The notes under the pieces: generated by a model | What the model saw: only the letters and a program-made list of their open reading frames with translations | What the model was told of the DNA's origin: nothing | Databases searched by the model: none | Position numbers and translations under genes: made by a program | Assembly (NCBI GenBank): GCA_903901055.1 | Contig: CAIUPO010000008.1 | Coordinates: forward strand, 4,799 to 68,798 | Length of the DNA stretch: 64,000 bases | Source of the DNA: an uncultured Bacteroidota bacterium | GTDB lineage: Bacteria > Bacteroidota > Bacteroidia > JABEUT01 | Direction of reading: 5' to 3' | Shown: positions 10,532 through 52,790 of the stretch, piece after piece | Position numbering within the stretch: the stretch's first letter is position 1 | Layout of the letters: each line of letters opens with the position of its first letter

Positions 10532-10542
10532 AAAAATCACTT

Positions 10543-11295: not shown

Positions 11296-11352
11296 ACAAT
11301 TAGCTTATTCCATTACATTTGTCCTGCCCAAAAACAATTTGAAGAGCAGGAA

Positions 11353-12735: not shown

Positions 12736-12935
12736 TGCTCTTGACGTTTTGTTATTTTTCATTCCAGAACATATTTCATCCCGTCCCTAAGCATTTTTAT
12801 CTGGCATTCAAAAGGGAAATAAACAACCTCAAAATCAAGGGGTACAAAAATCTATTCTAAAAAACAATTTTATTGTCGGCTTTTGAGTTAAATAATAATA
12901 TATTTGTCTGTTCAAATTATTGTAAGAAGACTTCT

Positions 12936-15299: not shown

Positions 15300-15312
15300 A
15301 AAATAACCCACC

Positions 15313-27890: not shown

Positions 27891-27994
27891 TATTTCTACC
27901 ATTCCGTCGTTAGTAATTATGTGCATTAATTAATTGATAGGTGCTATAATTAATTAAATTTGTACGTTATTCATAACATACCTTTTCTTTACCG

Positions 27995-31708: not shown

Positions 31709-31830
31709 ATTTCTATCGGAAGGCATCTGATGATAGGGTGGTAAGGGTGGAGGAAGTAACCAAAATGGAGCAAAATGCGTTTAAAGTATTACAAAATAGT
31801 GTAACTTTGTTCCGGAAATACAATAGGCTA

Positions 31831-36166: not shown

Positions 36167-36619
36167 GTTGCGAGTTAATTTCTACAAAAAGTGTAGTAAA
36201 AAGGGGGATTAAAAAGTACAATTATTGACTTGAAATGGATAGGGCTTTTATGCAACGTTATGCAACACTTTTGAAAATTCACGTTTAGCTAAAGTAATAA
36301 AAAATCTTTAAGAATAAGCATATAAACAAGCACTTAACTGAAAAAGACATATTTGAAATAAATTATAAGAAGATTGTACTAATATATATTATAAAATTAA
36401 CAATATAATATATTTTTGTAGCCTAATCTTAAAAATACGGGAGAAATCCCGTATTGCGCCCCGGGAAAACTCCCGTATACGATTTTCATAAAATCCCATT
36501 GACAAACCCTTTTTCAGGTTGTAAGTTTACCACGGCTTAAAATTCCTTTTTCCCATGCTCCGCTCATTTTTTATATCGTTAATTTTTTTAATATTGTGGT
36601 AGAATTAAAACTACCAGCT

Positions 36620-37984: not shown

Positions 37985-38009
37985 ATTTAACAATTAAACC
38001 AATAACATT

Positions 38010-38162
38010 ATGAAAACTATAATTTTTAATAAGCCGCTCACACTAACTTTTCTTATAATATTAGTTAATGCTTTTTTTACTTTAGGTCAAATATCAACCC
38101 CCACAAATACAATAACATCATCTGGAAATTATGTTGGAACAGACGCGTCCTCTATTACATAG
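38010..38162 (+). other. Signal-peptide segment (MKTIIFNKPLTLTFLIILVNAFFTLGQ...) in frame with the following ORF but separated from it by a TAG codon at 38160-38162
   Basis: ATG at 38010 opens 50 codons, then a TAG at 38160. The 832-aa ORF continues in the same frame from 38169 (TTG). Confidence 0.6.
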
Positions 38163-38168
38163 CCCGAC

Positions 38169-40667
38169 TTGTCATTCCAAACTTTAGGGAAGCAATATAT
38201 GGATTTAACAACAGCGGGGTATTTGGGTATATGGGATAACACCACTTACGGTGCTTACACGCCCACTCATTTAATAGATGTTTGGAATGGGGATATAAAT
38301 GTTACTTCAACTTCTGGAACAAATGGATTTATGATTAGTGGAAATCCAGTACTAAATAATGGAGGAGATGTTACATGTATATTTGTTGGGCAACAAGCCA
38401 GTGCGACCTCTTATTCATTCAATCATCTTACTTGCGTCGGTAGTGGCGCAGGAACCGACTTAACCGCAGGCATTTATGATTCATACCTGGGATTTTCAGC
38501 AGGAGGATTAGATGCAGATGGCTCATTTAATACTTTTATAGGTGCCTTTGCAGGGGCATCTACAAATGGGGGTGGATGGCCCGCTGGAAGTTATAATACT
38601 TTTACAGGATACGAGTGTGGCTTAGAAAATATTAGTGGGAAATCAAATTGCTTTTATGGAAAAGCGGCAGGATATTATAATGATGGCGCTTATAATTGCA
38701 TGTATGGCGGGCATTCTGGAAACGGAACAGTTTTATATGGTGCTGATAGTAATTGTTTTTATGGAGAATATAGTGCCAATAAAATACACTATGGCAATGA
38801 TAATATAGTAATGGGATTTGGGTCAGGGGAAAATACTGGCGAGTTAGCCCCAAGTGATTGGAATGTATTCATAGGAGGGAATGGCAGAGTTTTAGGGCAG
38901 TCAAATCCTTCAGGAATTTATAATGTTACCCTAGGTTTTGGTGCTGATGCCTATACAAGTTCATCTGCAACACCAGGAACAATTAATAACTCCGTTGCAA
39001 TCGGTGCGGATGCAATTGTAAGCCATGATAATCAATTTATACTTGGCAATAATTCGCAATTTTTAGGTATCGGCATGGTTGGAGACTCTTATGGGCTTGG
39101 GCCAATGGCTAATCTTGAAATTATGACAGACCAAAATACGGTTCCACCTTATGGTAGTTTTGGGTTTATTGGAAATGGATATTATAATTCTCTAAATTTT
39201 TATGCAGGTACAAGCGCAAGTCCCGGAACTGGCTTTAGTGGGTTAAAGTTTCGTGATTTAACATCTAATTCTAACCCTGTCGACCCCACCAGCGCAAATT
39301 TTAATCCATCCGAAGGAAACCCTTATCCGGCAGGTGTTTTAAGCATCGATGGATTCGGAAATGTGATCTATATTCCTGCTCCGGCTGCTTCATTAGGTAC
39401 GTGTGGAAGTCCGACATTGTTACCAGCCGGAGGAACTGGGGCAATAGATTTGAATGGGGGCAATTTTTATTTCTCAGGAAATGGTACAGGTGCTGCCGGG
39501 GTTGATAATGTTGCAATAGGACTGAATTGTTCCGTAACTCCAAACGCAAAATTAGAAGTGATTCAAGCTTCGGGCGATAATAATACGATTGGAACATACA
39601 TAACCAATTCAGATGGCAACACCGGTGCATTTGGCACCCCAACCCCAACTATAGGAATGGTAGCCTTTATGCCACAACCTTCAAATACTACCAATACTTT
39701 TTACAATGTTGCAGGCTGGTTTCAAGCCGATGGCGGCCCCAACATTGATATTTCAAGTTCTCTTATGCAGTATGCTATTTTTGTTCCAAGTACAATAAAT
39801 CCTGTTGACGGAACTACCCTTCCGGGCGGAACTGTTGATATTGGCTATCAATTCGCCCTGGATGTTCCCGACTACCTGTTAGACGTGAACGATTATGCTA
39901 GAATTGACGGCACTGTAGTTCCCTCCGATTCAAACTTAAAAAAGAGTATCACTCCGTTCAAATATGGCTTGAAAGCTATACGCAACCTGAGTCCTATTAA
40001 CTACAAATATAATGGCATAGGCGGTTTCGATTCCACCAAAAGCTTCATTGGTCTTATAGCTCAAAACCTTCAACGAAACGTGCCAAGCGGTGTGAAGAAA
40101 TCTCATATAATAAAAGACACTATTAACCGTGATACAGCAACTATTCTCAATATATACGAAGAGGCTGTAATGTATACGGCAGTTAATGCCATCAAAGAAT
40201 TGGATTCTACTGTTACAAGTAAAAATAAAACAATAGATAGTTTACGTACCACACTTGACAGTTTGCGCAGTGCATTCAAAGGCTTTCAGGATTGCCTGAA
40301 CAGGCTTTGTAATACGCATGGGCATATAGGAGGTGGCAATTCAGGAAATGATAATAACAATGAGAATACTTCTAATATTCAAGATGTAGCTTTATCTAAT
40401 GCAAATGCTCCTTTGCTTTATCAAAACATTCCGAACCCATTTAGCAGTAATACCAAAATAAATTATTACTTGCCTGTGGGTACTATTGGGGCTACTATCG
40501 TGTTTTATGATAGCTATGGCAATCAAATGAAGGAAGTTCAATTGAGCCAAACAGGCAATGGCACATTAAACATCAACCCTGAAAATTTAAGTAATGGTAT
40601 TTACTCATACAGCCTTGTTGTAAACGGCAAGGTTGTTGATACCAAAAGAATGATTTTGCAGAAATAG
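38169..40667 (+). CDS. Tail-fibre-like Gly-rich protein with a Peptidase_S74 intramolecular-chaperone domain and a T9SS type A C-terminal sorting domain. The N-terminal signal peptide is detached by an in-frame stop.
   Basis: NxFxGxxAG-type Gly-rich repeats fill the N-terminal body. SDSNLKKSITPFKYGLKAIRNLSPINYKYN matches the S74 chaperone motif (SDxRLKxNI...PVxYxYK). A coiled-coil-like stretch follows. The C-terminal Por_Secre_tail is LYQNIPNPFSSNTKINYYL...GIYSYSLVVNGKVVDTKRMILQK. Confidence 0.7.
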   Translation: MSFQTLGKQYMDLTTAGYLGIWDNTTYGAYTPTHLIDVWNGDINVTSTSGTNGFMISGNPVLNNGGDVTCIFVGQQASATSYSFNHLTCVGSGAGTDLTAGIYDSYLGFSAGGLDADGSFNTFIGAFAGASTNGGGWPAGSYNTFTGYECGLENISGKSNCFYGKAAGYYNDGAYNCMYGGHSGNGTVLYGADSNCFYGEYSANKIHYGNDNIVMGFGSGENTGELAPSDWNVFIGGNGRVLGQSNPSGIYNVTLGFGADAYTSSSATPGTINNSVAIGADAIVSHDNQFILGNNSQFLGIGMVGDSYGLGPMANLEIMTDQNTVPPYGSFGFIGNGYYNSLNFYAGTSASPGTGFSGLKFRDLTSNSNPVDPTSANFNPSEGNPYPAGVLSIDGFGNVIYIPAPAASLGTCGSPTLLPAGGTGAIDLNGGNFYFSGNGTGAAGVDNVAIGLNCSVTPNAKLEVIQASGDNNTIGTYITNSDGNTGAFGTPTPTIGMVAFMPQPSNTTNTFYNVAGWFQADGGPNIDISSSLMQYAIFVPSTINPVDGTTLPGGTVDIGYQFALDVPDYLLDVNDYARIDGTVVPSDSNLKKSITPFKYGLKAIRNLSPINYKYNGIGGFDSTKSFIGLIAQNLQRNVPSGVKKSHIIKDTINRDTATILNIYEEAVMYTAVNAIKELDSTVTSKNKTIDSLRTTLDSLRSAFKGFQDCLNRLCNTHGHIGGGNSGNDNNNENTSNIQDVALSNANAPLLYQNIPNPFSSNTKINYYLPVGTIGATIVFYDSYGNQMKEVQLSQTGNGTLNINPENLSNGIYSYSLVVNGKVVDTKRMILQK

Positions 40668-41029: not shown

Positions 41030-41443
41030 ATGGCAAAGACAATTCAGGAAGATGCCCACGTTGTAAACCAGATTAAGTCGGGCACGCATATTGAAGGTAT
41101 AATTAAGGCATCGGGAGATATCCGTATCGACGGTACGTTGAAGGGTACTTTACAAACTGAGGGAAAGCTGGTAATTGGCACATCGGGACAGATTGACGGT
41201 GAGATTACTTGCCAGAACGCCGAAGTGCATGGTACGGTGAACGGTAAAATTACTGTAAACGAACTGTTGTCGCTGAAATCGAGCTGTAAATTATTGGGAG
41301 ATATAGTAGTAGGAAGGTTATCAATTGAACCGGGTGCCCAATTCAGCGGTTCCTGTGTAATGGGAAATGCTGTAAAAGGCTTATATAATGGACAGGAATC
41401 AACCAAAGAAAGAAGCGAAAGAAAGCCGCAGACAGTCTCTTAA
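41030..41443 (+). CDS. Bactofilin (polymer-forming cytoskeletal protein, DUF583)
   Basis: The bactofilin beta-helix pattern is present (GxIxGxLxTEGKLVIGTSGQIDGEITCQNAEVHGTVNG...GDIVVGRLSIEPGAQFSGSC). Confidence 0.8.
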   Translation: MAKTIQEDAHVVNQIKSGTHIEGIIKASGDIRIDGTLKGTLQTEGKLVIGTSGQIDGEITCQNAEVHGTVNGKITVNELLSLKSSCKLLGDIVVGRLSIEPGAQFSGSCVMGNAVKGLYNGQESTKERSERKPQTVS

Positions 41444-41630
41444 CGCCCTTGCCCGTTATTCGGGAATGGGGTTTCAGATAGCAGCCTCTATTATTATTTG
41501 TTTGTTACTGGGTAAGTGGCTGGATGCTAAGTTCCCCATGAAGTTTCCGGTATTTACAACAGCACTTACAATTCTGGGAGTTTTTCTGGGGGTATTTTTT
41601 GTAATCAGAGATTTATTAAAAAAGAAATGA
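41388..41630 (+). CDS. AtpZ/AtpI-family small membrane protein
   Basis: ARYSGMGFQIAASIIICLLLGKWLD is followed by a second TM helix, the typical AtpZ (PF09527) architecture. It overlaps the bactofilin ORF by 56 nt. Confidence 0.6.
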   Translation: MDRNQPKKEAKESRRQSLNALARYSGMGFQIAASIIICLLLGKWLDAKFPMKFPVFTTALTILGVFLGVFFVIRDLLKKK

Positions 41631-42001
41631 AAGCATTGCACCGCAAGTTTATTTTGCAATTATTAGTTATTTCGGTGGTTTTATACGGAATCCTGTACTT
41701 TGTTTTTACGAAGTATAAGCCGGCCTCCTTGCCTTTAATAGTAATGATAGCACTGCTATTTGCTGTTAACTCGCTTGCGTTTATTATGATTTCAAATACG
41801 AAGGAAAAGAAGCCAAGAAGTTTTGTCTATTCTTTCATGACCATAAGTTTCGGAAGGTTAATTGTTTGCAGCATATTTGTGTTTTCGTATGCACTAACTC
41901 ATCGTCCCGATGCACGCACATTTGCGCTCACCTTTTTCGTGCTGTACTTTATTTATGCAGCAGTAGAAGTGAAGGCGATGTATTCGTTTTTCAAAAACTA
42001 A
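41627..42001 (+). CDS. Hypothetical 4-TM membrane protein
   Basis: Four hydrophobic helices are predicted. The gene overlaps the AtpZ-like gene by 4 nt (co-operonic). Confidence 0.5.
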   Translation: MKALHRKFILQLLVISVVLYGILYFVFTKYKPASLPLIVMIALLFAVNSLAFIMISNTKEKKPRSFVYSFMTISFGRLIVCSIFVFSYALTHRPDARTFALTFFVLYFIYAAVEVKAMYSFFKN

Positions 42002-42007
42002 GCAGAT

Positions 42008-42412
42008 TTATACCACTTTAAGAAAGTGGAGCAGGAGGTAAGCCAGGTATCCAAGCAGGATAAGAAGTGTAAACAGAATTAGCATTAATGAAACCCTGTT
42101 GACTTTAAAGAAATGAAACCCCCACCTTTTTATCCTTTTATATTTCCTATAACCTACTTTTGCAGCGCGGCTTCCGTCTACATCCATTTCAATAAACTCT
42201 TCAGTGGTAACAGGAATATGTATTAACCGTTCCTTTTTCATTTTTTCAATTATATGTTTCATTCTGTGCTGAACTTCAATACTGTGGCTTGGATTGACAA
42301 CATAGGAGTAAGGTAAACGGCCACCTTCCTTTATAATTTCATTTAAAACCTGGTTGATGATTTCGTTTTCATCAACCCAGTTGGGGTAAATACCTTTTGA
42401 TTTAGAATCCAT
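42008..42412 (-). CDS. Hypothetical tail-anchored membrane protein
   Basis: The start was set at the internal Met (MDSKSKG). The ORF opens earlier, at 42511. A soluble domain is followed by a single C-terminal TM helix. Confidence 0.45.
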   Translation of the reverse strand: MDSKSKGIYPNWVDENEIINQVLNEIIKEGGRLPYSYVVNPSHSIEVQHRMKHIIEKMKKERLIHIPVTTEEFIEMDVDGSRAAKVGYRKYKRIKRWGFHFFKVNRVSLMLILFTLLILLGYLAYLLLHFLKVV

Positions 42413-42521
42413 AGGCGAAATGGTTAAACAAAAATATACAGATACTGTATTCAGATTGTTAACTACGTATGAATAAAAAAGGTTTAAACAGGAATGCCAA
42501 ATTGATGGCAATTTTTATTGA

Positions 42522-42995
42522 CTATATCATAAACCAGACGGCTGCAATGAGAATAAGCAGAATGGCTAAAATGGATCTCAAAGGAACCGTTTGTTCAACT
42601 ACCTCACCTTGTTCTTTTTTTCTGCCGGAAATCTTATAACCACCTTCACACAGAACATTTTTGCCGCGTTGCCTAAGGTAAACACGCGCATTTCCCTGGT
42701 TTAATTGGGGCAGGGCAGTGTTTTGCAAATTATTTAATACATTAATTCCGTCATCCTCATAGCGGTCGCGCAAAAGAATAAGATTTTCTTTTTGCATCAG
42801 ATCAAGAATCGCTTTCATTTTTTTTTGTTGGCGTTCGGGCTGGAATTCATTTACAAAATTGGTGTAGAAAGAAGTTTCATTGTAAAATTCTTTACCGAAT
42901 AGCAGGGAAAGGATACTATTAACAATCTCTTGCTTAGTTCCCTTAAAGTTATAAAATCGGTAATTATTATCCACCTTTAAATTGTATTGTACCAA
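42522..42995 (-). CDS. Hypothetical tail-anchored membrane protein
   Basis: A soluble N-terminal domain is followed by one C-terminal TM helix (ILAILLILIAAVWFMI). It lies adjacent to the previous gene and has the same architecture. Confidence 0.45.
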   Translation of the reverse strand: MVQYNLKVDNNYRFYNFKGTKQEIVNSILSLLFGKEFYNETSFYTNFVNEFQPERQQKKMKAILDLMQKENLILLRDRYEDDGINVLNNLQNTALPQLNQGNARVYLRQRGKNVLCEGGYKISGRKKEQGEVVEQTVPLRSILAILLILIAAVWFMI

Positions 42996-43197
42996 ATATA
43001 AAATAATAGTGATGCGAAGAACTTGATTTGAATCATCAAAATGGCTTGGGTTACATTTTAGGTTGATTATCAGGCTATAAATTGCGATTAAATATGGACC
43101 GACATATTAAAGAGTTCAAAAGGGTTATTTTTTGATAAGCGAACTAATAAGCTGCAAGTAATAGGATTGCTATTATCTTTGTCCCGAATGAAGTAAC

Positions 43198-44844
43198 ATG
43201 GATAAACTGCCTGAAAATACAACAACCAGTTCGAAAAAGAAGTGGTTTTACGCGGTTTTTATTGTTATAAACCTACTGCTTTCCTGCTATTATGTAGATG
43301 TATGGATAACCCCAAACACTGCATGCAGAGCCATTCCTGTATTAACCTTGTTCGAGGATAAAACAATAGTGGTAGACAAATACAAAGACTTTGCGGGCGA
43401 TGTGAGCAGAATTGTAAAAAACAAAGACACCAATTACTATTCCAACAAGGCGCCGCTTTCTACTTTCCTGGTTTATCCTTTCTATTCAGCATATAAGTCT
43501 ATGGGTTTACCCGAGCTAAAAGATACTACCCTTAAAAAGTATCCGATTTATGATTATGATGCCTTTAAAACCCCTGACGGTACTGCTCCAACCCCTGATG
43601 CAAGGGCATTTTTACTACCAAAATCTGCTACCGTTTTTATGTTTGGCGATATTTTGTGCGGGGCTATTCCTTTTGTAATTACACTTCTGTTGTCATTATT
43701 AGCAATAAAAAGAACCGCCACCAAAATATCACCGGTTGTAATTGTAATGCTTTCTTTCTATGCGTCCTACATTTTTGGATACGCCGGGGTATATATGGGA
43801 CATATATTAAGCGGTTTTTTCGCACTGCTCGGATATATTTTCCTGAAAAAGAAAAGTTATATTTTGTCAGGGCTACTGCTGGGATTGGGTATGGCAACAG
43901 AGTTTACTGTGGGGATACTTGTGCCTGTTTGGGCTGTACTTATATATATGAATGAAAACCCAAAAGATTCTTTATGGAATAAATTCGTAAAGCTCTTATT
44001 TTTTGGCGGGGGATTAATTCCGGGAATGGTTATTGTTTTAGCCTATAACTATCATCTTACGGGCTCCGTTTTTAAAACCCCTTACAATTATGAGATTCAT
44101 CAAAGCAAAGAGAATGCTAATGAGTTGGGTTTTAATTTTCCAACATTGTCAGCCTTTTGGGGTTTGGTCTTCTCAACCTACAGGGGGGTATTATATTATA
44201 CTCCTGTTCTCATTTTTATGCTTTGGTATGTAGCTAAAAATGGATATCAGAACATATTAATAAATGTAAAAAGTAAACTGGGGTTGGTTGTTGCCGGAAT
44301 GAAAAATTATTTACTCCTAACTGTTGTTGCATTCCTGCTTTTAATATCCGCATATTACCAATGGCCCGGAGGTTGGGCATTAGGGCCGCGTTATTTAATA
44401 CCGATAGTAATGATTGTGCTTTATGAAGGAGTTATTTACCTTTCCTCAAAACCTGTTTCTGCCTATGTTTTTTATTCACTTACAGGTATTGGTATGGTAT
44501 TCATCTGGATGGATAAATCCACCAAAATATTCATGTTTCCCGATTATCCCCAAAATTATGAAACCTTTCATTTAAATGCTGCACAAATGGAGATAATTCA
44601 CTCCTACCAGAATCCTATATGGAATATTGTTGTTCCTGATTTTATGAAACACCACTTTAATACTAATTTATTACCTGTTTTCCTGTTTGATATGAGCCCA
44701 ATGGCAGCTATATATTTGTGGCCTGTATTGTTTATTGCTGCATTGATATTCCTTACACAATGGTATTCAAAATTATTTCCTGTTGCAGTGCAAATTCCCG
44801 TTGTGAAAGTTAAACCGGTAGCAAAAAAAATGAAACGCAAATGA
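43198..44844 (+). CDS. Polytopic membrane protein, putative GT-C-fold glycosyltransferase
   Basis: It has 12 or more predicted TM helices and a large early periplasmic loop. It overlaps the downstream TMTC-like gene by 4 nt (ATGA). Confidence 0.4.
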   Translation: MDKLPENTTTSSKKKWFYAVFIVINLLLSCYYVDVWITPNTACRAIPVLTLFEDKTIVVDKYKDFAGDVSRIVKNKDTNYYSNKAPLSTFLVYPFYSAYKSMGLPELKDTTLKKYPIYDYDAFKTPDGTAPTPDARAFLLPKSATVFMFGDILCGAIPFVITLLLSLLAIKRTATKISPVVIVMLSFYASYIFGYAGVYMGHILSGFFALLGYIFLKKKSYILSGLLLGLGMATEFTVGILVPVWAVLIYMNENPKDSLWNKFVKLLFFGGGLIPGMVIVLAYNYHLTGSVFKTPYNYEIHQSKENANELGFNFPTLSAFWGLVFSTYRGVLYYTPVLIFMLWYVAKNGYQNILINVKSKLGLVVAGMKNYLLLTVVAFLLLISAYYQWPGGWALGPRYLIPIVMIVLYEGVIYLSSKPVSAYVFYSLTGIGMVFIWMDKSTKIFMFPDYPQNYETFHLNAAQMEIIHSYQNPIWNIVVPDFMKHHFNTNLLPVFLFDMSPMAAIYLWPVLFIAALIFLTQWYSKLFPVAVQIPVVKVKPVAKKMKRK

Positions 44845-46748
44845 AACCTGTTCCACCGAAAAAGCCCCCGGTAAAGCCTGTTCAGAAGAAGCAGGCAGGT
44901 AATACTCCGCAAATGAAAATGCCGGCAAAACTTGAATTGCCGCTTGCACGTAAATGGATGATAATAATGGGGCTTATCCTGTTTACGTTTGTTATTTATG
45001 GAAATAGTATTTGGAATAGTTATTCGGGAGACGATGCCATTATTACCACGCAAAACCATTTTGTTCAGGAAGGAGCTAAAGGGATAGGACAAATATTTGC
45101 GAAAGGGTTTTTGTATGGCTTTAACCAGCGTAACGACCAGTCATATCGCCCCATCACCCTTACATTTATGGCTGTTGAAAAGCAAATGTTCGGCGAATCT
45201 CCGCTTGTGCATCATTTTTTTAATGTGTTCTGGTATGCTATTACTGCTGTTTTTCTTTTTTTAACATTGCTGAAAGTTTTTCGAAAGTATAATTATATTG
45301 TACCCTTATTAATAACGGTTCTTTTTATAGCCCATCCTATTCATACCGAAGTGGTTGCAAACATTAAAAGCAGAGATGAAATACTAAGCTTTTTGTTTTG
45401 CATCATTGCTGTGTACTGCTCAATGAAATATTATATTTATGACGAAGCTCCAACGTATGTTGTTTTGAGCTGGGTGTTTTTCTTCCTTTCAATTTTAAGT
45501 AAGGAAACAGTACTTACTTATGCATTTGTAATTCCAATGGTATATTATTATTTCACCGATTTCAAACCTTGGAAATTAATTGTAATTGGTATGCCATTTG
45601 TGGGAGTGGTGTTGCTTTATATGATAATTCGATTGAAAGTACTTACCTTTTTTACGTTTGACGAACAGATGATTGTAATAAACAATTCGCTGATGGCTGC
45701 CCACAACTGGCCTGACAGACTTGCAACAACTATTTTTATTTTAGGTAAATATATTTATCTGTTGTTTGTTCCTTATTCATTAACATGGGATTATTCGTAC
45801 AATCAAATTCCCGTTGTTTCGCTTTTAAGCCCTCAAGCATTGATATCCATTGCAGTTTATGCAGGTTTAATTGTATACGCAATTATGGGCTTGAAGAAAA
45901 AAGACCCTATATCATTCGGGATATTTTATTTCATAATAACCATGTCGGTTGTATCAAATCTTTTTATAAAAATAGGTTCAACAATGGGTGAGCGGTTTTT
46001 ATATACTTCTTCGCTTGGTTTTTGCATTGCAATTGCATTTATAATTGTGCGCCTGCTAAAGATTCAAACGGATGCGCCAAGGCCAAAAGTTACAAGTTTG
46101 TATATAGTTGCAGGTGTCATTCTTGTTCCATATAGTATTCGTACAATTACCAGGAATCCGGATTGGAAAAACAACTTCGCACTATTTTCGTCGGCTGCCA
46201 ATATTTCAACCAACAGTGCCCGGGCCCACCAGGCAATTGCGTTTACCTATACAGACTCTGCACTTAAGGTAACCAACGCCAATGACAGGACTGCCTTGTT
46301 TAATAAAGCCATCCCTGAATACTATGCTGCTTTAAAAATTCTGCCCGACTACTCCGAAGCACTATATAATCTGGGTTGGAACTATTATTCGATGGGCGAT
46401 TTAACAAAGAATAATGCTTCACCTTATTTTGATTCGGCAAAAGTGAGTTTTGAGAAATGTATAAAAGCCGATCCTGTATATATTAATGCATACAATAATT
46501 TGGGGGTAATTTATTTCAATCGTAAAGATTATGGGAATGCCATTTTCACTTTTGAAAAGGGCCTTCAGGCAAACCCTAACAATGCCGGAATGTATGAAAA
46601 CCTAGGAGCTGCGTTTTATAATCTGAACCGTTTTGATTCCTGTATTTATTATTACCAGAAAGCCCTGCTTATTGACCCTGGATTAAACGCTGCACGTGAA
46701 AACATGTCAAAAGCCCAGAATGCTTTACTTGCCGGACAGAAACATTAA
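44841..46748 (+). CDS. TMTC-like protein: polytopic DUF1736-type membrane domain plus C-terminal TPR repeats (putative protein O-mannosyltransferase family)
   Basis: The N-terminus is Pro/Lys-rich. A TM domain follows with YRPITLTFMAVE...LVHHFFNV, as in TMTC/DUF1736 proteins. There are at least four C-terminal TPR units (YNLGWNYYSMGD..., YNNLGVIYFNRKDY..., YENLGAAFYNLNRF...). Confidence 0.6.
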   Translation: MKPVPPKKPPVKPVQKKQAGNTPQMKMPAKLELPLARKWMIIMGLILFTFVIYGNSIWNSYSGDDAIITTQNHFVQEGAKGIGQIFAKGFLYGFNQRNDQSYRPITLTFMAVEKQMFGESPLVHHFFNVFWYAITAVFLFLTLLKVFRKYNYIVPLLITVLFIAHPIHTEVVANIKSRDEILSFLFCIIAVYCSMKYYIYDEAPTYVVLSWVFFFLSILSKETVLTYAFVIPMVYYYFTDFKPWKLIVIGMPFVGVVLLYMIIRLKVLTFFTFDEQMIVINNSLMAAHNWPDRLATTIFILGKYIYLLFVPYSLTWDYSYNQIPVVSLLSPQALISIAVYAGLIVYAIMGLKKKDPISFGIFYFIITMSVVSNLFIKIGSTMGERFLYTSSLGFCIAIAFIIVRLLKIQTDAPRPKVTSLYIVAGVILVPYSIRTITRNPDWKNNFALFSSAANISTNSARAHQAIAFTYTDSALKVTNANDRTALFNKAIPEYYAALKILPDYSEALYNLGWNYYSMGDLTKNNASPYFDSAKVSFEKCIKADPVYINAYNNLGVIYFNRKDYGNAIFTFEKGLQANPNNAGMYENLGAAFYNLNRFDSCIYYYQKALLIDPGLNAARENMSKAQNALLAGQKH

Positions 46749-46819
46749 GATTGTTTTAGGTTTTGCAAGTAGACACGTTTAGCTTAAAATTCGTAACTTT
46801 GTTTATTAATTGAATAATT

Positions 46820-47287
46820 ATGAAATTTTTTTCAACCCTGCTTTTGTTTTGTTCAATAGCAATTACAACTGTTTCTGCGCAAAATAATTCAACTAAAAAA
46901 GCACCTCCATTTACTGTAGATAAGGTAAGCCCTCCCAATCATCAAACGGGAAGGACCAATTATGTGCTTTCTAATTCTGAAAAGGATTTAAAGAACAGGG
47001 ATTTTATTTTCTGCACCGATTCAAATTCTACAGTGGCCTATTTAACAATTAATGGGTTTACGATACGATTAGCAGGCGGCCCTAATCCCGAGAATATCCT
47101 GGCATATAACGGATCGGGCTATGCTGTTACATTCAGCATAACCAAAACAAGTTCAAATACAACAATAAACGATAAGGATGATTATACGGGAGTAAAAGTG
47201 GACGGAATACTTTCCATATATAATAGTAAGGGGCAAGTGATAGGTAAAAAAGTTACCGGTGTAGAAATTAATGCGGTAAAAAATTAG
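46820..47287 (+). CDS. Hypothetical secreted protein
   Basis: It has a signal peptide. I found no recognisable domain. Confidence 0.4.
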   Translation: MKFFSTLLLFCSIAITTVSAQNNSTKKAPPFTVDKVSPPNHQTGRTNYVLSNSEKDLKNRDFIFCTDSNSTVAYLTINGFTIRLAGGPNPENILAYNGSGYAVTFSITKTSSNTTINDKDDYTGVKVDGILSIYNSKGQVIGKKVTGVEINAVKN

Positions 47288-47349
47288 TTAACGGTAGCAG
47301 GTAGTTTTTAATAGAGTTGTATGTTTCGGAATTATTTTAAATATATTGG

Positions 47350-47943
47350 ATGAAGCATAATTATACACTGTTAATTTTATTTTGTTTTTTTATCAGTCAA
47401 TGTGCTGTTAAAGCCCAGTCGAAGCAAAAGCATTCAGCTCATAAATCTTCAATGCCTCAACAATTCTTTACGGCTTTTGGCAGCAAAGTGAAATTCGCTG
47501 TATACAATACAGATACTGCTCATGTAGATAGTGTAGGCACTTATGTTACCCATACAGCCGAATATATATGGGACACAATTAATTCAGGATATATTTTCGC
47601 TATTAAAGAACAACGGTTGTTCTGCGATAGCATTAAACCCGAAATTTTAAAAAGAGATTTGCAGAATATAATAAGTGTAATACCACAAAATGGTTTTAGG
47701 TTGCTTGATAAAAGCGGTGGAGAGTTTTCAATTAATATAGAAGAAGCACTATATGATGGGGGAGAGGATTCGGTTTTTGTTTCTGTTGATATAAGTGGCT
47801 TTATTGGCGGCAGTGCTGAATTTGAAGAAACAGGAGTGGTGGGACTAAAGTATTCTGAACTAAAACAATATAACGACAGTATATATAAGCGGCCCGATCA
47901 TTACCCTATGAACAGGTTTGGCAAACAGCTTCAGCTTAGATAG
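47350..47943 (+). CDS. Hypothetical secreted protein
   Basis: It has a signal peptide. I found no recognisable domain. Confidence 0.4.
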   Translation: MKHNYTLLILFCFFISQCAVKAQSKQKHSAHKSSMPQQFFTAFGSKVKFAVYNTDTAHVDSVGTYVTHTAEYIWDTINSGYIFAIKEQRLFCDSIKPEILKRDLQNIISVIPQNGFRLLDKSGGEFSINIEEALYDGGEDSVFVSVDISGFIGGSAEFEETGVVGLKYSELKQYNDSIYKRPDHYPMNRFGKQLQLR

Positions 47944-47948
47944 GGTGA

Positions 47949-48578
47949 TTAGGCAGAGGGATTATCCTTGGGGAGTTTCCGGAAGAATTTAATCATCCCT
48001 GTACTATCAATGGTAAATTCTAAAAGTTTATAGTGTAATTGAATATTTTTCTTAATATCAGATTTCTTCTTGTCGCGTTCAAAAGTTTGATTGGAGTCGA
48101 TTAGAATAATATGGAGGTCTTTTGTGATTTTTGCAATAGATAAACCCGTACAAGCTTCATTTTCGCCACAACAATTACCTATCAGTAATTTCTGGGTTGA
48201 AATTGGTTCTCCATTCTTATTAAAGGTGCGCAATACGGGAAGCTGAACATCCCCAGTAAGGGAATAAAGGATGGCAATATATTTATCTGTCTCATTCACT
48301 TTACCAATTACACGTCCATATTTTTTAAACTTAGAAAGGGTATCCGGGATACTTACTGCTTGTGTTGCCACCGTATCATAACATGTATCGATAAAAGGAA
48401 GGGACACAGAACGCATAGAAGATGTATAGGTCTTCATTGGGCTTTCAATAGAACTTGCTATGGTGTTGCTTTTTTCAGGATTGGTATGACATCCGACTAT
48501 CGAAATGAAGATTCCGGAGAGAAGTAAAACGTTAAATTTGTAAAGCGTACCCAACCTATAATTCAAAAAATTCATCAT
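47949..48578 (-). CDS. Hypothetical lipoprotein
   Basis: It has a signal peptide with the lipobox IVGC. Confidence 0.4.
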   Translation of the reverse strand: MMNFLNYRLGTLYKFNVLLLSGIFISIVGCHTNPEKSNTIASSIESPMKTYTSSMRSVSLPFIDTCYDTVATQAVSIPDTLSKFKKYGRVIGKVNETDKYIAILYSLTGDVQLPVLRTFNKNGEPISTQKLLIGNCCGENEACTGLSIAKITKDLHIILIDSNQTFERDKKKSDIKKNIQLHYKLLEFTIDSTGMIKFFRKLPKDNPSA

Positions 48579-48785
48579 ACCATGTAATATTACTGCAAAG
48601 GTAGCGTTAATGATGTAAGTAATGGTTCAATTTTAAAGAAGTGTAACAAAGGATAAAAAACATTCGTTAAGAACCATAGTTGTTAATAAAAAGTGAATAA
48701 GTTGATTCAATCATGTTGTAGTTATAATTTTTTTTACTATATTTGCCTTGTAATGCCCCAAAAAGAGATTTAAATAAATAGAAAT

Positions 48786-50108
48786 ATGAATAAATTTTTA
48801 CCCTTAGTAGGCTTGTTGGTAGCGCCTTTAGTTGGTTTTTCACAAGCCAGAATTGTAATAAACGGAACCTCGCTTGTTACTATTGTTGAGAATGGTGGCA
48901 TTAAAGCAAAACCTATTTATATAGATGTTAATAATTCTGCGACCAACGCAATTACTACTGTTGGAACAAAAGGATGGATTGTTTCTGAAAGTGAATTTAA
49001 TATGGTAAAGTGGGACATTAGTACCACTACCGGTGCTTATACAGTGCCATTCGGATATAGCAGCCTTTATTCAATTCCATTAACGCTAACACTTGGTGCA
49101 GGTGCAAGTGCAGGTGGTAGTATTTTATTTTCTACCTACCATACACCAAACCTGAATTCAGCGTCTCAACCTTCGGATGTTAATAATATGGGACCAATTA
49201 TTCCTGCTAACAGCCAACCTACACCTATAGATGACTCTTACCAGGTAGTTGACCGTTTTTGGATTATGGATGCATCGAGCTATGGAACAAAACCAGCCAT
49301 TACACAAACTGTATTTACATTTTTAAGCACTGCCAGTACTGCCAGTGAAGTTGGCGGATTGAATGTTGCAGGTATTGAACCTTTATTATTAGCACAACGT
49401 TATAATACAACCATTCCTACTAAAGGTAGCTGGGGAGATTGGTTAGGTTTAGCCGGACAGGCTGGCCCAACCGGTGTAACTAACACTGACAAGAGCGGAC
49501 CTCTTACTGCTGCTAACTTTTATAGATCATGGACATTATCCAGTTCAAATTCTCCATTGCCAATTGAAATAAGTTCTTTCACCGATATTTGTAATAATGG
49601 TGCAGCACTTGTTCAATGGACATCACAATCTGAACTTAACAATGACTATTACACATTGAAAAAGACAACCGATAATGTTCATTTTGAAACTGTAGGAACT
49701 TTGAAGGGAGCAGGTACTACAAGTATGCCAACCAATTATTCAATTACTGATAATAATCCATTCCCTGGTGTGTCTTACTACTTATTGTATCAAACTGATA
49801 TTGACCAAACCACTACCCTTGTAAAAACTATTCCATTCCAAGGATGCGGTGGTCCTGCAGCTACAACTATTACTGCATTCAATACTTCAAATTATATAGA
49901 AGTTCAAATCAATTCAATTGCTGCTGATGAGTATGACATGACTTTGACCAATATGCTTGGCCAAACATTATTAAATGAACATCACTCAGTTGTAGTTGGA
50001 AGTAACGAAATTCAGTTGAGCAATACTCTTAGCCCAGGTATATATATCCTTAACCTGAAAGGCAATATGGGTTCCCTTACCAAAAAGCTTGCAATAGGAG
50101 TAAAGTAA
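48786..50108 (+). CDS. Secreted hypothetical protein with a T9SS type A C-terminal sorting domain
   Basis: It has a signal peptide. The C-terminus is a Por_Secre_tail (LTNMLGQTLLNEHHSVVVGSNEIQLSNTLSPGIYILNLKGNMGSLTKKLAIGVK). Confidence 0.65.
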   Translation: MNKFLPLVGLLVAPLVGFSQARIVINGTSLVTIVENGGIKAKPIYIDVNNSATNAITTVGTKGWIVSESEFNMVKWDISTTTGAYTVPFGYSSLYSIPLTLTLGAGASAGGSILFSTYHTPNLNSASQPSDVNNMGPIIPANSQPTPIDDSYQVVDRFWIMDASSYGTKPAITQTVFTFLSTASTASEVGGLNVAGIEPLLLAQRYNTTIPTKGSWGDWLGLAGQAGPTGVTNTDKSGPLTAANFYRSWTLSSSNSPLPIEISSFTDICNNGAALVQWTSQSELNNDYYTLKKTTDNVHFETVGTLKGAGTTSMPTNYSITDNNPFPGVSYYLLYQTDIDQTTTLVKTIPFQGCGGPAATTITAFNTSNYIEVQINSIAADEYDMTLTNMLGQTLLNEHHSVVVGSNEIQLSNTLSPGIYILNLKGNMGSLTKKLAIGVK

Positions 50109-50236: not shown

Positions 50237-51352
50237 ATGCCGATGAGAAACAAAAATTACATGCGAATAATAGGATTACTTAGTGTATGTCTTCTGACTT
50301 CCTTTCAAATTACTACAGCTCAAAATTCCGTACTTGTTTTAAAAGGAAATGTATTAACCCCAGTTCCTGCTTCAAAAGCCACCTCACAAACGCCGGTTAA
50401 AAAAAATCCACATGCAGATTCGATAGCTGCGGCAAAAAAGGCTGCATCAAAACAAGCGCCGGTTGTAAAGGCACCTGCACCTAAGCCAGCTCCTGTTGTT
50501 AAAGCTCCGGCACCAAAGCCAGCTCCTGTAGTTGTTAAGGCACCAGCCCCGAAACCCGCTCCAGTAGTAAAAGCACCTGCTCCAAAACCAGCTCCGGTTG
50601 TTGTGAAAGCACCAGCCCCGAAACCTGCTCCAGTTGTAAAAGCTCCGGCTCCAAAGCCAGCTCCGGTTGTTGTAAAAACACCGACAAAAGTTGTGCCTGT
50701 AAAAACTCCTGTTTTAGCTCAGGTAGATTATATTAAAAGAGTTCAATTCGTTCATAACCTAGTGTCAAGAAAGATACCACAAACTGTTATTGATTCAATT
50801 GGAGAAATAAACCACGACCTCCTGGATTCAATACGCAGGGAAATTACCAAGCATAAAGACAAGGACAGTATTAACTTCCTGAAAGCTGCCTTGGCAAATG
50901 GAGTGAATGACAGTATTACCCTTTTTAATATTGATAACCTTGTGAACTCTACGGCTGTGAATACTCCGGCAGACGGTACAGGATCATTAAATACATCATG
51001 TATTGATATTTCAACCCAGGCTCCGATTGATTCTGTAAAGGTGGAAATATTCAGCCATGATTCTTTAATTTTAACTACGTTTACTGATAACCAAGGGTCT
51101 TCGAAAATACCGAACATGAAACCAGGTGAGTATAATCTGAATTTTTCAAAGAATAATTATACCCCGTTTTCTGAAAGGTGGATAAAAGTAACAGCAGGTA
51201 ATCCTACCTACGTTCAAATGCCACTAACAGAAATACCAAGGTTTTATCTGCCTAAATTCTCTGCACAGATTTGGGCAATGATTGCAGTTGGCTTAATTTC
51301 AGTATTCGTGCTGATTTATTCCATCATCCGCAGATTGGGCAGGGTTGCCTGA
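50237..51352 (+). CDS. Cell-surface protein with proline-rich APAPKPAPVV(V)K tandem repeats, a CarboxypepD_reg-like beta-sandwich and a C-terminal TM anchor
   Basis: It has a signal peptide. There are 3.3 copies of a 23-aa repeat. The beta-sandwich region is VKVEIFSHDSLILTTFTDNQGSSKIPNMKPGEYNLNF. The C-terminal helix is IWAMIAVGLISVFVLIYSII. Confidence 0.6.
   Translation: MPMRNKNYMRIIGLLSVCLLTSFQITTAQNSVLVLKGNVLTPVPASKATSQTPVKKNPHADSIAAAKKAASKQAPVVKAPAPKPAPVVKAPAPKPAPVVVKAPAPKPAPVVKAPAPKPAPVVVKAPAPKPAPVVKAPAPKPAPVVVKTPTKVVPVKTPVLAQVDYIKRVQFVHNLVSRKIPQTVIDSIGEINHDLLDSIRREITKHKDKDSINFLKAALANGVNDSITLFNIDNLVNSTAVNTPADGTGSLNTSCIDISTQAPIDSVKVEIFSHDSLILTTFTDNQGSSKIPNMKPGEYNLNFSKNNYTPFSERWIKVTAGNPTYVQMPLTEIPRFYLPKFSAQIWAMIAVGLISVFVLIYSIIRRLGRVA
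50456..50678 (+). repeat. In-frame 69-bp tandem repeat (about 3.3 copies) encoding (APAPKPAPVVK)(APAPKPAPVVVK)
   Basis: The direct DNA repeats are visible at 50461-50690. Confidence 0.8.
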
Positions 51353-51473
51353 TTTGAATCATTCCGATTATTCCCAAAAAGCAAGTCTGCGTTAAAAATT
51401 AATGTAGAAATCCTGAAAACTATTTTTCGTTGGAAAAATTCGGTTAAATTTGTGCCACACTGAATATTACTTT

Positions 51474-52790
51474 ATGAAAAAAATAGCTGTTTCACTTATC
51501 GGAGTTACATTATGCCTGCAAGGCTTTGCCCAAAGCGGTAAAATTTCAAGCGCTGCAACTCATCTTGATTATTACCGGAGTCACCGCGATGACACCACAG
51601 AACTGGCTTCCGGCAGAGCTGCAATTGATGAAGCCGCCATAAATGAAAAGACAAAAGATGAACCTAAAATGCATCTTTACAGAGGGGAGATATATCTGGA
51701 ATGGTTTAACATGCATTTGAATAAATTAGAATCGAAATTATTACCGGCAGGGGCTACAGATAACAAGTCAAAAAATAAAGCTTATGCGGATGCATTCACC
51801 CAAATGGATACAAGTTCAATTTGTATTGCAACCAACTCATTCATTAAGGTAATACAATTAGTACCTAAAGATTATTATGCCAAGGAAGCCTTAAGCAATG
51901 AAAACCTTCCAAAGTGCTTGTTAATTCTTGAAAACAAAGCTTTGGTTGAGTTTAACAACAAACATTATCCTTCTGCACTGGCATTATATAAAAAGGCCAT
52001 TTCAGTTTGCCCTGTTTTAAATATTACTGACACCGCAAAGACATACAAAGAAAATATTGAAATGGCTGCCTTTTCAGCTGACAGAGCCGGAAATAATGCT
52101 GAGGCAATTATCTATTACCAAAAAACAATGGATTTGAAATATGACAAATCAACTCCATACCGTTTATTATCTGCTTTGTACCTTAAGCAGAATGACAGCA
52201 CAAAAGCCTGGGGTGTTATAGAAAAAGGCCGTACTGATTATCCGGATGATGAACAGATTATAATTCTGGAAACAAACTATTTTATAAACAGGCACGACTT
52301 TGCAAAAGCAGAAAGCAACCTTAAACTAACTATAAGCAAAGTAGAAGCAAGCCCAAATAAAGATTCAAAAGTTTTAACAAGTTTGTACACCAACCTGGGT
52401 AATATATACGACAGAAGGGCAAATCCTAAGGGCGTTACAGGGGATGATACAACTAAGCCTGCAGACTATGAAACCTTATTTGGAAATGCTGAGACCTACT
52501 ACAAAAAGGCGCTTGAACTTGACCCGGCTAATTTTGATGTATTGTTTGTAACAGGTGCTTTATATTACAACAGAGCTGTAAGTATTGCTAAAGATGCAGA
52601 TAAACTCCCTTTGAATGCTACCGAAAAGTACAATAAATTAATTGCAGATTCTAAAGGATATTTTGCAAAAGCACAACCTTATTTTGAAAGCGCCCATAAA
52701 GTGAAACCGGATGATGTTTCAAACACCAATGCGTTGAAGCAGGTTTATTCCAGCACAGGGCAAAATGATAAGGCGGAAGGTTTAAAGTAA
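51474..52790 (+). CDS. TPR-repeat protein, secreted
   Basis: The signal peptide starts at the internal Met (MKKIAVSLIGVTLCLQGFAQ). TPR-like helical repeats run throughout. Confidence 0.55.
   Translation: MKKIAVSLIGVTLCLQGFAQSGKISSAATHLDYYRSHRDDTTELASGRAAIDEAAINEKTKDEPKMHLYRGEIYLEWFNMHLNKLESKLLPAGATDNKSKNKAYADAFTQMDTSSICIATNSFIKVIQLVPKDYYAKEALSNENLPKCLLILENKALVEFNNKHYPSALALYKKAISVCPVLNITDTAKTYKENIEMAAFSADRAGNNAEAIIYYQKTMDLKYDKSTPYRLLSALYLKQNDSTKAWGVIEKGRTDYPDDEQIIILETNYFINRHDFAKAESNLKLTISKVEASPNKDSKVLTSLYTNLGNIYDRRANPKGVTGDDTTKPADYETLFGNAETYYKKALELDPANFDVLFVTGALYYNRAVSIAKDADKLPLNATEKYNKLIADSKGYFAKAQPYFESAHKVKPDDVSNTNALKQVYSSTGQNDKAEGLK

Follow-up and report, generated by a model that had tools for sequence, protein, structure and literature searches.

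A GT-C glycosyltransferase gene overlapping a TMTC-like gene in an uncultured Bacteroidota bacterium, and the recurrent partners of its family

Two adjacent genes, designated here A and B, in a 64,000-nucleotide stretch of DNA from an uncultured Bacteroidota bacterium (the window) encode two different polytopic proteins of the GT-C glycosyltransferase fold and share a start/stop overlap that is conserved in related loci. B retains conserved motifs of the animal TMTC proteins. A belongs to a large family whose genes, in several phyla and gene orders, repeatedly adjoin a second GT-C gene of the protein-O-mannosyltransferase clan, which is a new observation. With moderate confidence, we regard A and B as a unit of two genes encoding different periplasm-facing GT-C glycosyltransferases of one pathway, acting by the steps proposed below. 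Most likely the two enzymes would cooperate in the periplasm to glycosylate acceptors, probably proteins, with sugars donated by polyprenyl phosphates.

The overlapping gene pair

Both reading frames start with ATG, and the features discussed in this study are listed in Table 1. At the junction (44838–44846, AAATGAAAC), the ATG of B (44841–44843) lies over the TGA stop codon of A (44842–44844), in agreement with the earlier note, which had described proteins of 548 and 635 residues overlapping by ATGA. Each protein has many homologs and a confidently predicted fold (pLDDT 88 and pTM 0.91 for A; pLDDT 92.7 and pTM 0.89 for B), so neither is a chance reading frame. The earlier note had also proposed that conservation of the pair be checked in relatives, and the ATGA junction is indeed retained in five distinct related loci, where A is 48–71% identical to the protein of the window. 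The overlap is consistent with translational coupling.

The putative promoter upstream of A is proposed from its position only, because the count of TAnnTTTG motifs in the window is not above chance. The pattern scan found no such motif at the A/B junction, and the next copy that precedes a gene start (46794–46801) lies ahead of the gene at 46820. A scan for sigma-70 promoters and terminators, which is ill-suited to Bacteroidota, gave results at chance level, and Rfam and tRNA scans of the entire window returned no matches.

Table 1 Positions of genes and features of the A–B unit within the window.
Feature	Position	Strand	Basis
Putative promoter of the A–B unit, TATCTTTG	43174–43181	+	Bacteroidota -7 motif TAnnTTTG, 17 nt upstream of the A start codon (pattern scan)
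Gene A: 548-aa, 12-TM GT-C-fold glycosyltransferase without TPR domain	43198–44844	+	Large family without Pfam model
A, first periplasmic loop: D68 (43399–43401), Y81-S-x-K84-A-P86 (43438–43455)	43399–43455	+	Conservation and model
A, further invariant polar residues: H202 (43801–43803), E235 (43900–43902), R329, R398 (44389–44391)	43801–44391	+	Conservation and model
ATGA start/stop overlap of A and B	44841–44844	+	Sequence; shared by five distinct related loci
Gene B: 635-aa TMTC-like protein, 11-TM GT-C core (residues ~35–442) and periplasmic TPR domain	44841–46748	+	Sequence, Pfam and model
B, EL1: D64-D65 (45030–45035, M1), S101-Y102-R103-P104 (45141–45152, M2)	45030–45152	+	Conservation; PMC7801869
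B, K221-E222-T-V-L-T226: M4 KE(T/Q)xxT, EL3 (metal and phosphate binding in TMTC)	45501–45518	+	Conservation; PMC7801869
B, DUF1736-like loop (residues 287–343), EL4, with D317-Y318 at the M5 (DW) position	45699–45869	+	Pfam PF08409, conservation
B, E384-R385-F-L-Y388: M7 ERxxY, EL5 (phosphate binding)	45990–46004	+	Conservation; PMC7801869
B, TM11 (418–442), junction R438-N439-x-x-W442-K-N-N-F and TPR domain (445–634)	46092–46742	+	Module also fused to A-family cores in paralogs

TMTC-type architecture and motifs of B

Judged by its architecture and motifs, B is a bacterial TMTC-type protein. The animal TMTC1–4 proteins, which belong to CAZy family GT105, are cadherin protein O-mannosyltransferases composed of the Pfam TMTC_DUF1736 domain and TPRs; their acceptor sites are Ser/Thr residues of folded β-sandwich (cadherin EC) domains. 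Like them, B is predicted to have its N-terminus inside, eleven TM helices, a long EL1, a DUF1736-type EL4, and a non-cytoplasmic TPR domain at the C-terminus. The TPRs are recognized by Pfam (TPR_1, E 2e-17), and the model places ten helices within residues 445–634, corresponding to about five helix pairs, whereas animal TMTCs contain more TPRs. When the model of the membrane domain was compared with known structures, the high-Z matches were GT-C-fold proteins only, while a search with whole B against PDB chain sequences found TPR proteins only. The B family comprises more than 4,500 matches, and those bearing names are all from metagenome-assembled genomes, non-Bacteroidota among them.

The motif definitions M1–M7 of TMTCs were used as the reference for comparison (PMC7801869). 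B and TMTC1–4 share DD (M1), SYRP (within M2), KETxxT (M4), and ERxxY (M7). D64 and D65 of M1, Y102, R103, and P104 of M2, K221 and E222 of M4, and E384 and R385 of M7 are all invariant in 54 homologs. The full M2 motif in EL1 is SHKSYRP, while B has N-D-Q-S-Y102-R103-P104, and thus its H-K part is not kept. B also contains H124-H125-F-F-N128, with H125 and N128 invariant in the 54 homologs. The segment K176-S-R178-D179-E180 at the TM3/TM4 turn is a possible counterpart of M3 (RxD, EL2); R178 and E180 are invariant in a 10-sequence alignment and at least 90% conserved in the 54-sequence alignment. B differs from TMTC1–4 at M5 (DW), where the Asp is kept and the Trp is replaced by Tyr (D317-Y318, both invariant in the 54 homologs), and by the absence of M6 (PxxP, TM9), there being no proline in residues 360–383 upstream of ERxxY. 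M6 contacts the dolichyl tail in TMTCs, and bacteria lack dolichyl carriers.

A further difference is that the DUF1736 signal is below the Pfam threshold: PF08409 matches residues 287–343 with 23.2–24.2 bits (E ~3e-5), under the gathering cut-off of 27. All ten B-family N-terminal domains tested match the model at E ≤ 0.01 (below 27 bits where scored), and many B homologs carry a precomputed PF08409 match. Thus, of the TMTC-like assignment made in the earlier note, the YRP and HHxxN elements and the TPRs (at least four were claimed) stand, and the DUF1736 domain is found at a sub-threshold level. On the concern that B may lack the catalytic residues of TMTCs, M1, M2, M4, and M7 are kept.

Full-length prokaryotic homologs of TMTCs exist and are uncharacterised (PMC7801869). 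Our literature search found neither a bacterial TMTC-like/DUF1736 protein or A-family member with a demonstrated activity or acceptor, nor an O-mannosyltransferase of Bacteroidota. Since B is bacterial, it would use an undecaprenyl-type phosphate sugar as donor instead of the Dol-P-Man of TMTCs. B also differs from TMTCs in being coupled to a second GT-C protein; no such coupling has been described for them.

Two other groups of protein O-mannosyltransferases were compared. TMEM260 (Pfam TMEM260-like/DUF2723), which modifies the IPT domains of plexins and MET, resembles B in combining a GT-C core with a TPR domain, which in TMEM260 is luminal and recruits the acceptor peptide. This binding has been shown experimentally for the human protein (bioRxiv 10.64898/2026.03.17.711096). 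TMEM260 differs in that a Rossmann-like domain separates its core from its TPRs, and its Pfam models match neither A nor B. The PMT/POMT enzymes (GT39), including the Pmt1–Pmt2 heterodimer, carry a luminal β-trefoil MIR domain between TM7 and TM8. Pfam detected no MIR domain in A or B, and the TM7–TM8 loop of B is modeled as short helices only. PMT_2 is matched by some members of the B family only (five of the ten N-terminal domains tested).

The A family and its genomic partners

The family of A comprises approximately 23,000 cluster representatives and has no Pfam model. The protein is polytopic, and its model, like that of B, has high-Z structural matches to GT-C-fold proteins only; the possibility raised in the earlier note that both belong to unrelated transporter families is not borne out by the models. 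A, the membrane domain of B, and both family profiles gave no match when searched against all PDB chain sequences. The only curated model matching A is NCBIfam NF047440 (LA_3751/LA_3752, putative glycosyltransferases of Leptospira, a family itself uncharacterised), with 52 bits over residues 159–437. The score is far under the cut-off of 200 set for that family, to which A does not belong. NF047440 also matches a third GT-C protein of the window, encoded at 11353–12735.

D68, Y81, K84, H202, E/D235, and R398 are invariant in the A family, and all are located on the predicted periplasmic side. Specifically, D68, Y81, and K84 are unchanged in 64 sequences down to ~20% identity, and position 235 is Glu or Asp in 64 of 64. 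By analogy with the acid that GT-C enzymes carry in EL1, D68 is a candidate for the residue that catalyses transfer or binds the acceptor. The order of helices in the model puts D34 in EL1 as well, and this second residue is kept in the close clade only. E235 may correspond to the metal-binding Glu of TMTC M4, and R398-Y399 may contain the counterpart of the phosphate-binding Arg of M7.

The partners of A-family genes fall into three families. In the close clade, a TPR-less A is followed by B in all seven loci with a readable downstream region. Two loci (L010 and L011) have the reversed order, B then A, and in one from Nitrospirota (L013) a distant B-like gene precedes A. PMT_2 proteins are the partners at five further loci and TMEM260-like proteins at four. 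Within the ±6 kb flanks of A, 19 of 20 PMT-clan matches are the immediate neighbour. Altogether, approximately nine arrangements (A–B, B–A, divergent, and convergent) were observed in at least five phyla. Related genomes inflate the counts. Five distant A homologs were sampled independently, and two of them have PMT-clan or STT3 neighbours. About 75% of A-family loci lack a GT-C gene within 1.5 kb, and hence a partner is not strictly needed by A.

The partnership extends to shared modules. Some A paralogs have an extra TM helix and a TPR module fused in cis. In one of them (P0139), this module includes the RNxxWKNNF junction specific to B, and its alignment with the C-terminus of B is co-linear. 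One locus (L084) contains a same-strand array of B, B, A+TPR, A+TPR, and B. A search for a universal neighbour of the A family, whether GT2, flippase, or any other gene, revealed contexts that are lineage-specific only. In Smithella-type loci a conserved gene of ~260 aa, which by eye we take to be SurE-like, is directly upstream of A, and some Bacteroidia loci have neighbour genes of ~340 and ~1,950 aa.

These observations bear on whether the two proteins work together at all. That A and B are functionally independent and merely co-transcribed, their adjacency reflecting inherited synteny and the clustering of envelope-glycosylation genes, appears quite improbable to us. In the closest relatives the whole block bounded by the bactofilin and T9SS-type genes (41030–50108) is syntenic, and thus adjacency there is not independent evidence; together with the inflated counts, this would favour independence. 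The diversity of arrangements, partner families, and phyla argues against it, however, as do the gene fusions, the array, and the recurrence of the pattern in the independent sample.

It is also unlikely that the two proteins work obligately as a heterodimer sharing one activity, in the manner of Pmt1–Pmt2, POMT1–POMT2, or EmbA–EmbB, in which A would be a second or degenerate core using the TPR domain of B. To our knowledge, the GT-C heterodimers described so far consist of paralogs, but A and B showed no relationship in a profile–profile comparison, which also distinguishes them from the PMT/POMT pairs. Most A-family members, moreover, have no partner gene nearby. Since paralogy was not detectable (hhalign probability 0.5%), the idea that A and B are a duplicated pair was dropped. 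The F. collinsii "tandem genes" paper turned out to be unrelated.

Donor, acceptor and proposed function

GT-C enzymes draw on lipid-linked sugars as donors and not on nucleotide sugars. The genes beside A and B encode neither a synthase of polyprenyl-phosphate sugars (GT2) nor a flippase; a 250-aa GT2 protein is encoded at 10543–11295, 31 kb from the pair. The earlier note had pointed to UDP-GlcA/UDP-Xyl biosynthesis genes in the vicinity. A UDP-glucose 6-dehydrogenase is indeed present (23615–24925), while the adjoining SDR gene product (22638–23606) is not confidently a UDP-xylose synthase. A link of A/B to these genes was set aside, since they are ~18 kb away and outside the conserved synteny block and the identity of the SDR is doubtful.

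With regard to the acceptor, many GT-C enzymes, such as ArnT, Aft/Emb, and ALG, have lipids or glycans as substrates. ArnT (GT83), the undecaprenyl-phosphate-L-Ara4N:lipid A transferase, lacks TPRs and is encoded with donor-synthesis genes in the arn operon, whereas none flank A–B. ALG12, ALG9, PIG-M, and mycobacterial PimE are lipid-donor mannosyltransferases that elongate lipid-linked glycans. No sequence similarity of these enzymes to A or B was detectable, and both proteins gave fold scores against ALG12 as good as those against PMTs. A tentative alternative is that A and B modify a non-protein acceptor of the envelope, such as lipid A/LPS core, capsular or exopolysaccharide, or a glycolipid, with the TPR domain as a periplasmic scaffold. 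The resemblance would then be to ArnT, Rgt enzymes, YfhO, and Aft/Emb arabinosyltransferases. Against this, B has the set of TMTC motifs and the DUF1736 loop in place of features specific to ArnT, the genes recurring beside A belong to three families of the protein-O-mannosyltransferase type and to STT3, and in TMEM260, the one GT-C+TPR enzyme tested, the TPR domain binds the acceptor peptide. A protein acceptor for A and B is inferred solely from homology to TMTC and TMEM260. The recurrence of such pairs in several bacterial phyla makes a protein-glycosylation module plausible.

The earlier note had placed the pair among T9SS adhesins as a plausible adhesin-glycosylating system, and T9SS-type C-terminal domains are present in five reading frames (12873–18504, 19587–21473, 25179–33900, 36596–40667, and 48786–50108). 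These cargo genes are spread over the entire window, and nothing links A/B to T9SS adhesins specifically. In a search confined to the window's own neighbour genes, none of them, including the nearest T9SS-type gene (48786–50108), was found in the flanks of four loci from more distant genomes that retain an A/B pair (L008, L010, L011, and L013). The Bacteroidota O-glycosylation sequon D(S/T)(A/I/L/V/M/T) is strongly enriched in secreted proteins encoded by the window relative to what their composition predicts (23 observed vs 4.25 expected, 21 vs 4.3, 7 vs 0.83, and 6 vs 0.48) and shows no excess in cytoplasmic ones. In gene D (47350–47943), five sequons are conserved in six orthologs, and the substitutions stay within the motif. 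From the enrichment in secreted proteins, the organism probably has the general O-glycosylation of Bacteroidota, known from B. fragilis, P. gingivalis, F. johnsoniae, and others, a result that says nothing on whether A or B belongs to it.

In the mechanism we propose, whose catalytic activities, donor, order of action, and physical contact between A and B are all inferred, each protein would act on the outer face of the inner membrane and receive its sugar from a polyprenyl-phosphate carrier. The periplasmic TPR domain of B would capture the acceptor, and B would start O-glycosylation at Ser/Thr of secreted or periplasmic proteins. A would then add a further lipid-donated sugar, or modify a second site, via the TPR domain of B in trans.

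According to two 2025 reviews, the enzymes of the Bacteroidota core glycan and its transferase are still undiscovered, and one of them proposes seeking homologs of eukaryotic O-mannosylation (PMC12871550, PMC12632263). It would be a very long shot to identify B and A with this missing initiating machinery. In that case B would place the reducing-end mannose on the D(S/T)(A/I/L/V/M/T) sequons from undecaprenyl-phosphate-mannose, as in eukaryotic O-mannosylation, and A would add the next core sugar, also lipid-donated.

TMTC-like and TMEM260-like proteins abound in bacteria, and none has a known substrate. The tendency of an unnamed GT-C family to adjoin such enzymes, at times sharing their TPR module, points to a previously undescribed two-enzyme module of periplasmic glycosylation. 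If the acceptors are envelope glycans, the finding would be more ordinary, yet two large families would be annotated. If they are proteins, the module would be a bacterial counterpart of the domain-specific O-mannosylation pathways of animals, and would provide concrete candidate genes for core steps of Bacteroidota protein O-glycosylation, a process reported to be essential for viability (PMC12632263).

Layout and protein families of the A–B pair

The ORF listing places gene A (encoding a GT-C protein without TPRs) and gene B (encoding a TMTC-like protein with a membrane core and TPRs) exactly at the positions of the earlier note, and the sequence reads ATGA at 44841–44844, so that the start codon of B (ATG) overlaps the stop codon of A (TGA). 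This junction is kept in the related loci L001/L080, L003, L005, L006/L082, and L007 despite divergence of A to 48–71% identity, and A/B pairs also occur in L008, L010, and L011. TAnnTTTG is the −7 promoter element of Bacteroidota. A pattern scan located this motif 17 nt upstream of the A start and next ahead of a gene start at 46794–46801, before gene C at 46820, with none at the A/B junction; judged by these positions only, A and B are probably a bicistronic unit. Gene C keeps its place after B in synteny (35–48% identity). A conserved upstream block (41030–42995) accompanies A–B in the close clade. A stand-alone TPR protein downstream matches the profile of the B TPR domain weakly (5e-14), and the syntenic L080 has a similar gene. 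Scans of the whole 64-kb window for tRNA genes and for Rfam families at the gathering threshold found neither.

Features of the A–B region and of other loci in the window
Feature	Position	Strand	Remarks
Asparagine-synthase-type amidotransferase	7522-9399	+	Second glycosylation cluster
GT4	9392-10531	+	8-nt overlap with preceding gene
GT2	10543-11295	+	250 aa
Third GT-C-like membrane protein	11353-12735	+	Second glycosylation cluster
Sequon-rich region	15313-18504		Within 12873-18504; sequons 21 vs 4.3 expected
Sequon-rich region	25179-27890		Sequons 23 vs 4.25 expected
Bactofilin gene	41030-41443		Conserved upstream block
AtpZ/ATPase_gene1-like ORF	41388-41630		56-nt overlap with bactofilin gene
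Membrane ORF	41627-42001		124 aa; conserved upstream block
Two small divergently oriented ORFs	42008-42511, 42522-42995	−	Hydrophobic C-termini; no family match
Gene A	43198-44844	+	548 aa
Gene B	44841-46748	+	635 aa
Gene C	46820-47287	+	155-aa secreted protein, directly after B; no family match
Gene D	47350-47943	+	197-aa secreted protein, two genes downstream of B; no family match
Sequon-rich region	50237-51352		Sequons 7 vs 0.83 expected
Stand-alone TPR protein	51450-52790	+	446 aa

The TPRs of B are strong in Pfam (E 2e-17), while TMTC_DUF1736 at residues 287–343 is sub-threshold (23.2 bits against a cut-off of 27). With only the membrane domain as query, more than 4,500 homologs were found, many with precomputed DUF1736 or PMT_2 matches and with source names including “protein O-mannosyl-transferase”; among ten B-family N-terminal domains, DUF1736 is found at E ≤ 0.01 in all and PMT_2 in five. 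B was compared with the seven TMTC motifs of Eisenhaber et al. (PMC7801869). M1 (D64-D65), M2 (S-Y102-R103-P104), M4 (K221-E222-T-x-x-T226), and M7 (E384-R385-x-x-Y388) are kept and invariant in an alignment of 54 homologs, M3 is ambiguous, M5 (D317-Y318) has the Asp with Tyr in place of Trp, and M6, the PxxP that touches the dolichol tail in TMTCs (PMC7801869), is not present. The four invariant motifs indicate a bacterial TMTC-type GT-C whose active site is apparently intact.

A has no detectable sequence relationship to B. The helix order in its model and the Lys-rich termini suggest 12 TM helices with cytoplasmic N- and C-termini, and the periplasmic side would hold all invariant polar residues (R44, D68, Y81, K84, H202, E/D235, R329, and R398). 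An exhaustive profile search of the family gave 23,184 cluster representatives at E ≤ 1e-3, of which 4,062 reach E ≤ 1e-30, and the membrane core of sampled members had no Pfam match.

Recurrent partners and a common TPR module

Scanning genomes with the A family yielded 283 relatives, and 79 loci were kept. Synteny in the closest clade covers everything from the bactofilin gene through the T9SS-type gene, so adjacency there proves little by itself. Beyond this clade, several findings speak for a genuine link between A and its partners. L008 has A followed by B but lacks the window's other neighbours, L010 and L011 have B then A, and a distant TMTC-like gene with TPRs abuts A in L013 (Nitrospirota). 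PMT_2 proteins directly adjoin A-family genes in L030, L032, L034, L042, and L045, and TMEM260-like proteins do so in L038, L039, L040, and L083. Of 20 PMT-clan matches within ±6 kb, 19 directly adjoin the A-family gene, although roughly half the DNA in these flanks is more distant. Five distant A homologs (L086–L090) served as an independent sample: L086 has a cluster of GT87, A, STT3, GT2, and PMT; in L089, A and a PMT_2+TPR gene are divergent; A lacks a partner in L087 and L088; and L090 is ambiguous. Mere co-transcription of two independent enzymes appears quite improbable beside this recurrence.

Arrangements are co-directional, divergent, or convergent, in Bacteroidota, Acidobacteriota, Geobacteraceae (L018), and Oligoflexia. 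Other neighbours are YfhO/PTPS_related in L018 and DUF6311 in L072. The STT3-type oligosaccharyltransferase of L086:1-9623 (GCA_040961615.1, JBFONE010000007.1) is convergent, and the PMT/PMT_2 gene completes four GT-C genes within 10 kb. No GT-C partner-type neighbour occurs at about three in four A-family loci, so the association is frequent, not obligatory.

Some A-family members are longer (620–790 aa), with TPRs after an additional TM helix; by this topology the TPRs would lie in the periplasm. In one such paralog, P0139, the TPR module has the RNxxWKNNF junction of the B family and can be aligned co-linearly to B residues 414–629 (31% identity, E 2e-25). The JGI metagenome contig that carries it (L084:1-10293) has five consecutive GT-C+TPR genes on the same strand (B, B, A+TPR, A+TPR, B), in which both families are mixed and expanded. 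In the close clade, B follows TPR-less A in all seven cases with readable downstream sequence, whereas the TPR-fused paralogs in L004 and L085 stand alone with no B alongside; this fits a requirement of the A core for a B-type TPR module in cis or in trans. An obligate heterodimer of A and B with one activity is unlikely.

Proposed module and its acceptor

In the best supported reading, the two GT-C enzymes A and B form a cooperative module: both would act at the periplasmic face with polyprenyl-phosphate sugars as donors, the TPR domain of B would select the acceptor, and A would extend the glycan or act on a second site. ALG and PimE-type enzymes, among the fold matches of A, are precedents for an elongating enzyme, and a TPR role in acceptor selection was shown experimentally for human TMEM260 (bioRxiv 10.64898/2026.03.17.711096). 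A protein is the favoured acceptor, since the families of B and of the recurrent A partners (TMTC, TMEM260, PMT, and STT3) are all GT-C families that glycosylate proteins; modification of a non-protein envelope acceptor, set against these family memberships, is a minor though appreciable possibility. The cooperative module in full, with acceptor selection by TPRs and a protein acceptor, is given about an even chance.

According to two 2025 reviews (PMC12871550, PMC12632263), the general O-glycan of Bacteroidota has mannose at the reducing end, and neither the conserved-core enzymes nor the transferase have been discovered; one of them suggests a search for homologs of eukaryotic O-mannosylation. 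The sequon D(S/T)(A/I/L/V/M/T) is strongly enriched in the secreted proteins of the window; these are T9SS cargo and other secreted proteins, and internal repeats may inflate the counts. In cytoplasmic proteins its number does not exceed expectation. By this enrichment, the organism probably has the general O-glycosylation system. Gene D has 6 sequons against 0.48 expected (P about 1e-5), and five are positionally conserved in six orthologs with substitutions within the motif (DTA/DSA/DTT/DTV; DSI/DTI/DSV; DSI/DSA/DSL). Its product is probably heavily O-glycosylated and is a possible test substrate. That the TMTC-like family is the initiating enzyme of this general system is very doubtful, its multi-copy arrays (L084) and presence in other phyla counting against such a role.

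A second glycosylation cluster lies at 7522–12735 (+). Its GT-C-like protein falls just short of the PMT_2 cut-off (25.4 against 26.1 bits) and matches the B-core profile weakly (8e-9). GT2 with GT-C is the classical arrangement of a lipid-sugar synthase and a periplasmic transferase.

The earlier note had proposed adhesin-specific glycosylation near UDP-GlcA/UDP-Xyl genes. T9SS cargo genes are scattered over the whole window, and at distant loci its own T9SS-type neighbour does not travel with the pair. The UDP-glucose dehydrogenase is real but 18 kb away, the SDR beside it cannot confidently be called a UDP-xylose synthase, and nucleotide sugars are not used directly by GT-C enzymes. For glycosylation of adhesins in particular there is thus only an analogy: TMTCs act on cadherin domains, and the local cargo proteins have PKD/Ig-like repeats. 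The earlier observation of the pair is confirmed, and its interpretation is supported in part.

Full-length prokaryotic TMTC homologs exist and are uncharacterised (PMC7801869). B belongs to a known kind of protein, uncharacterised in bacteria, and A to a large unnamed GT-C family; new here are the recurrent pairing of A with PMT-clan proteins and the TPR module that B shares with some A-family members.
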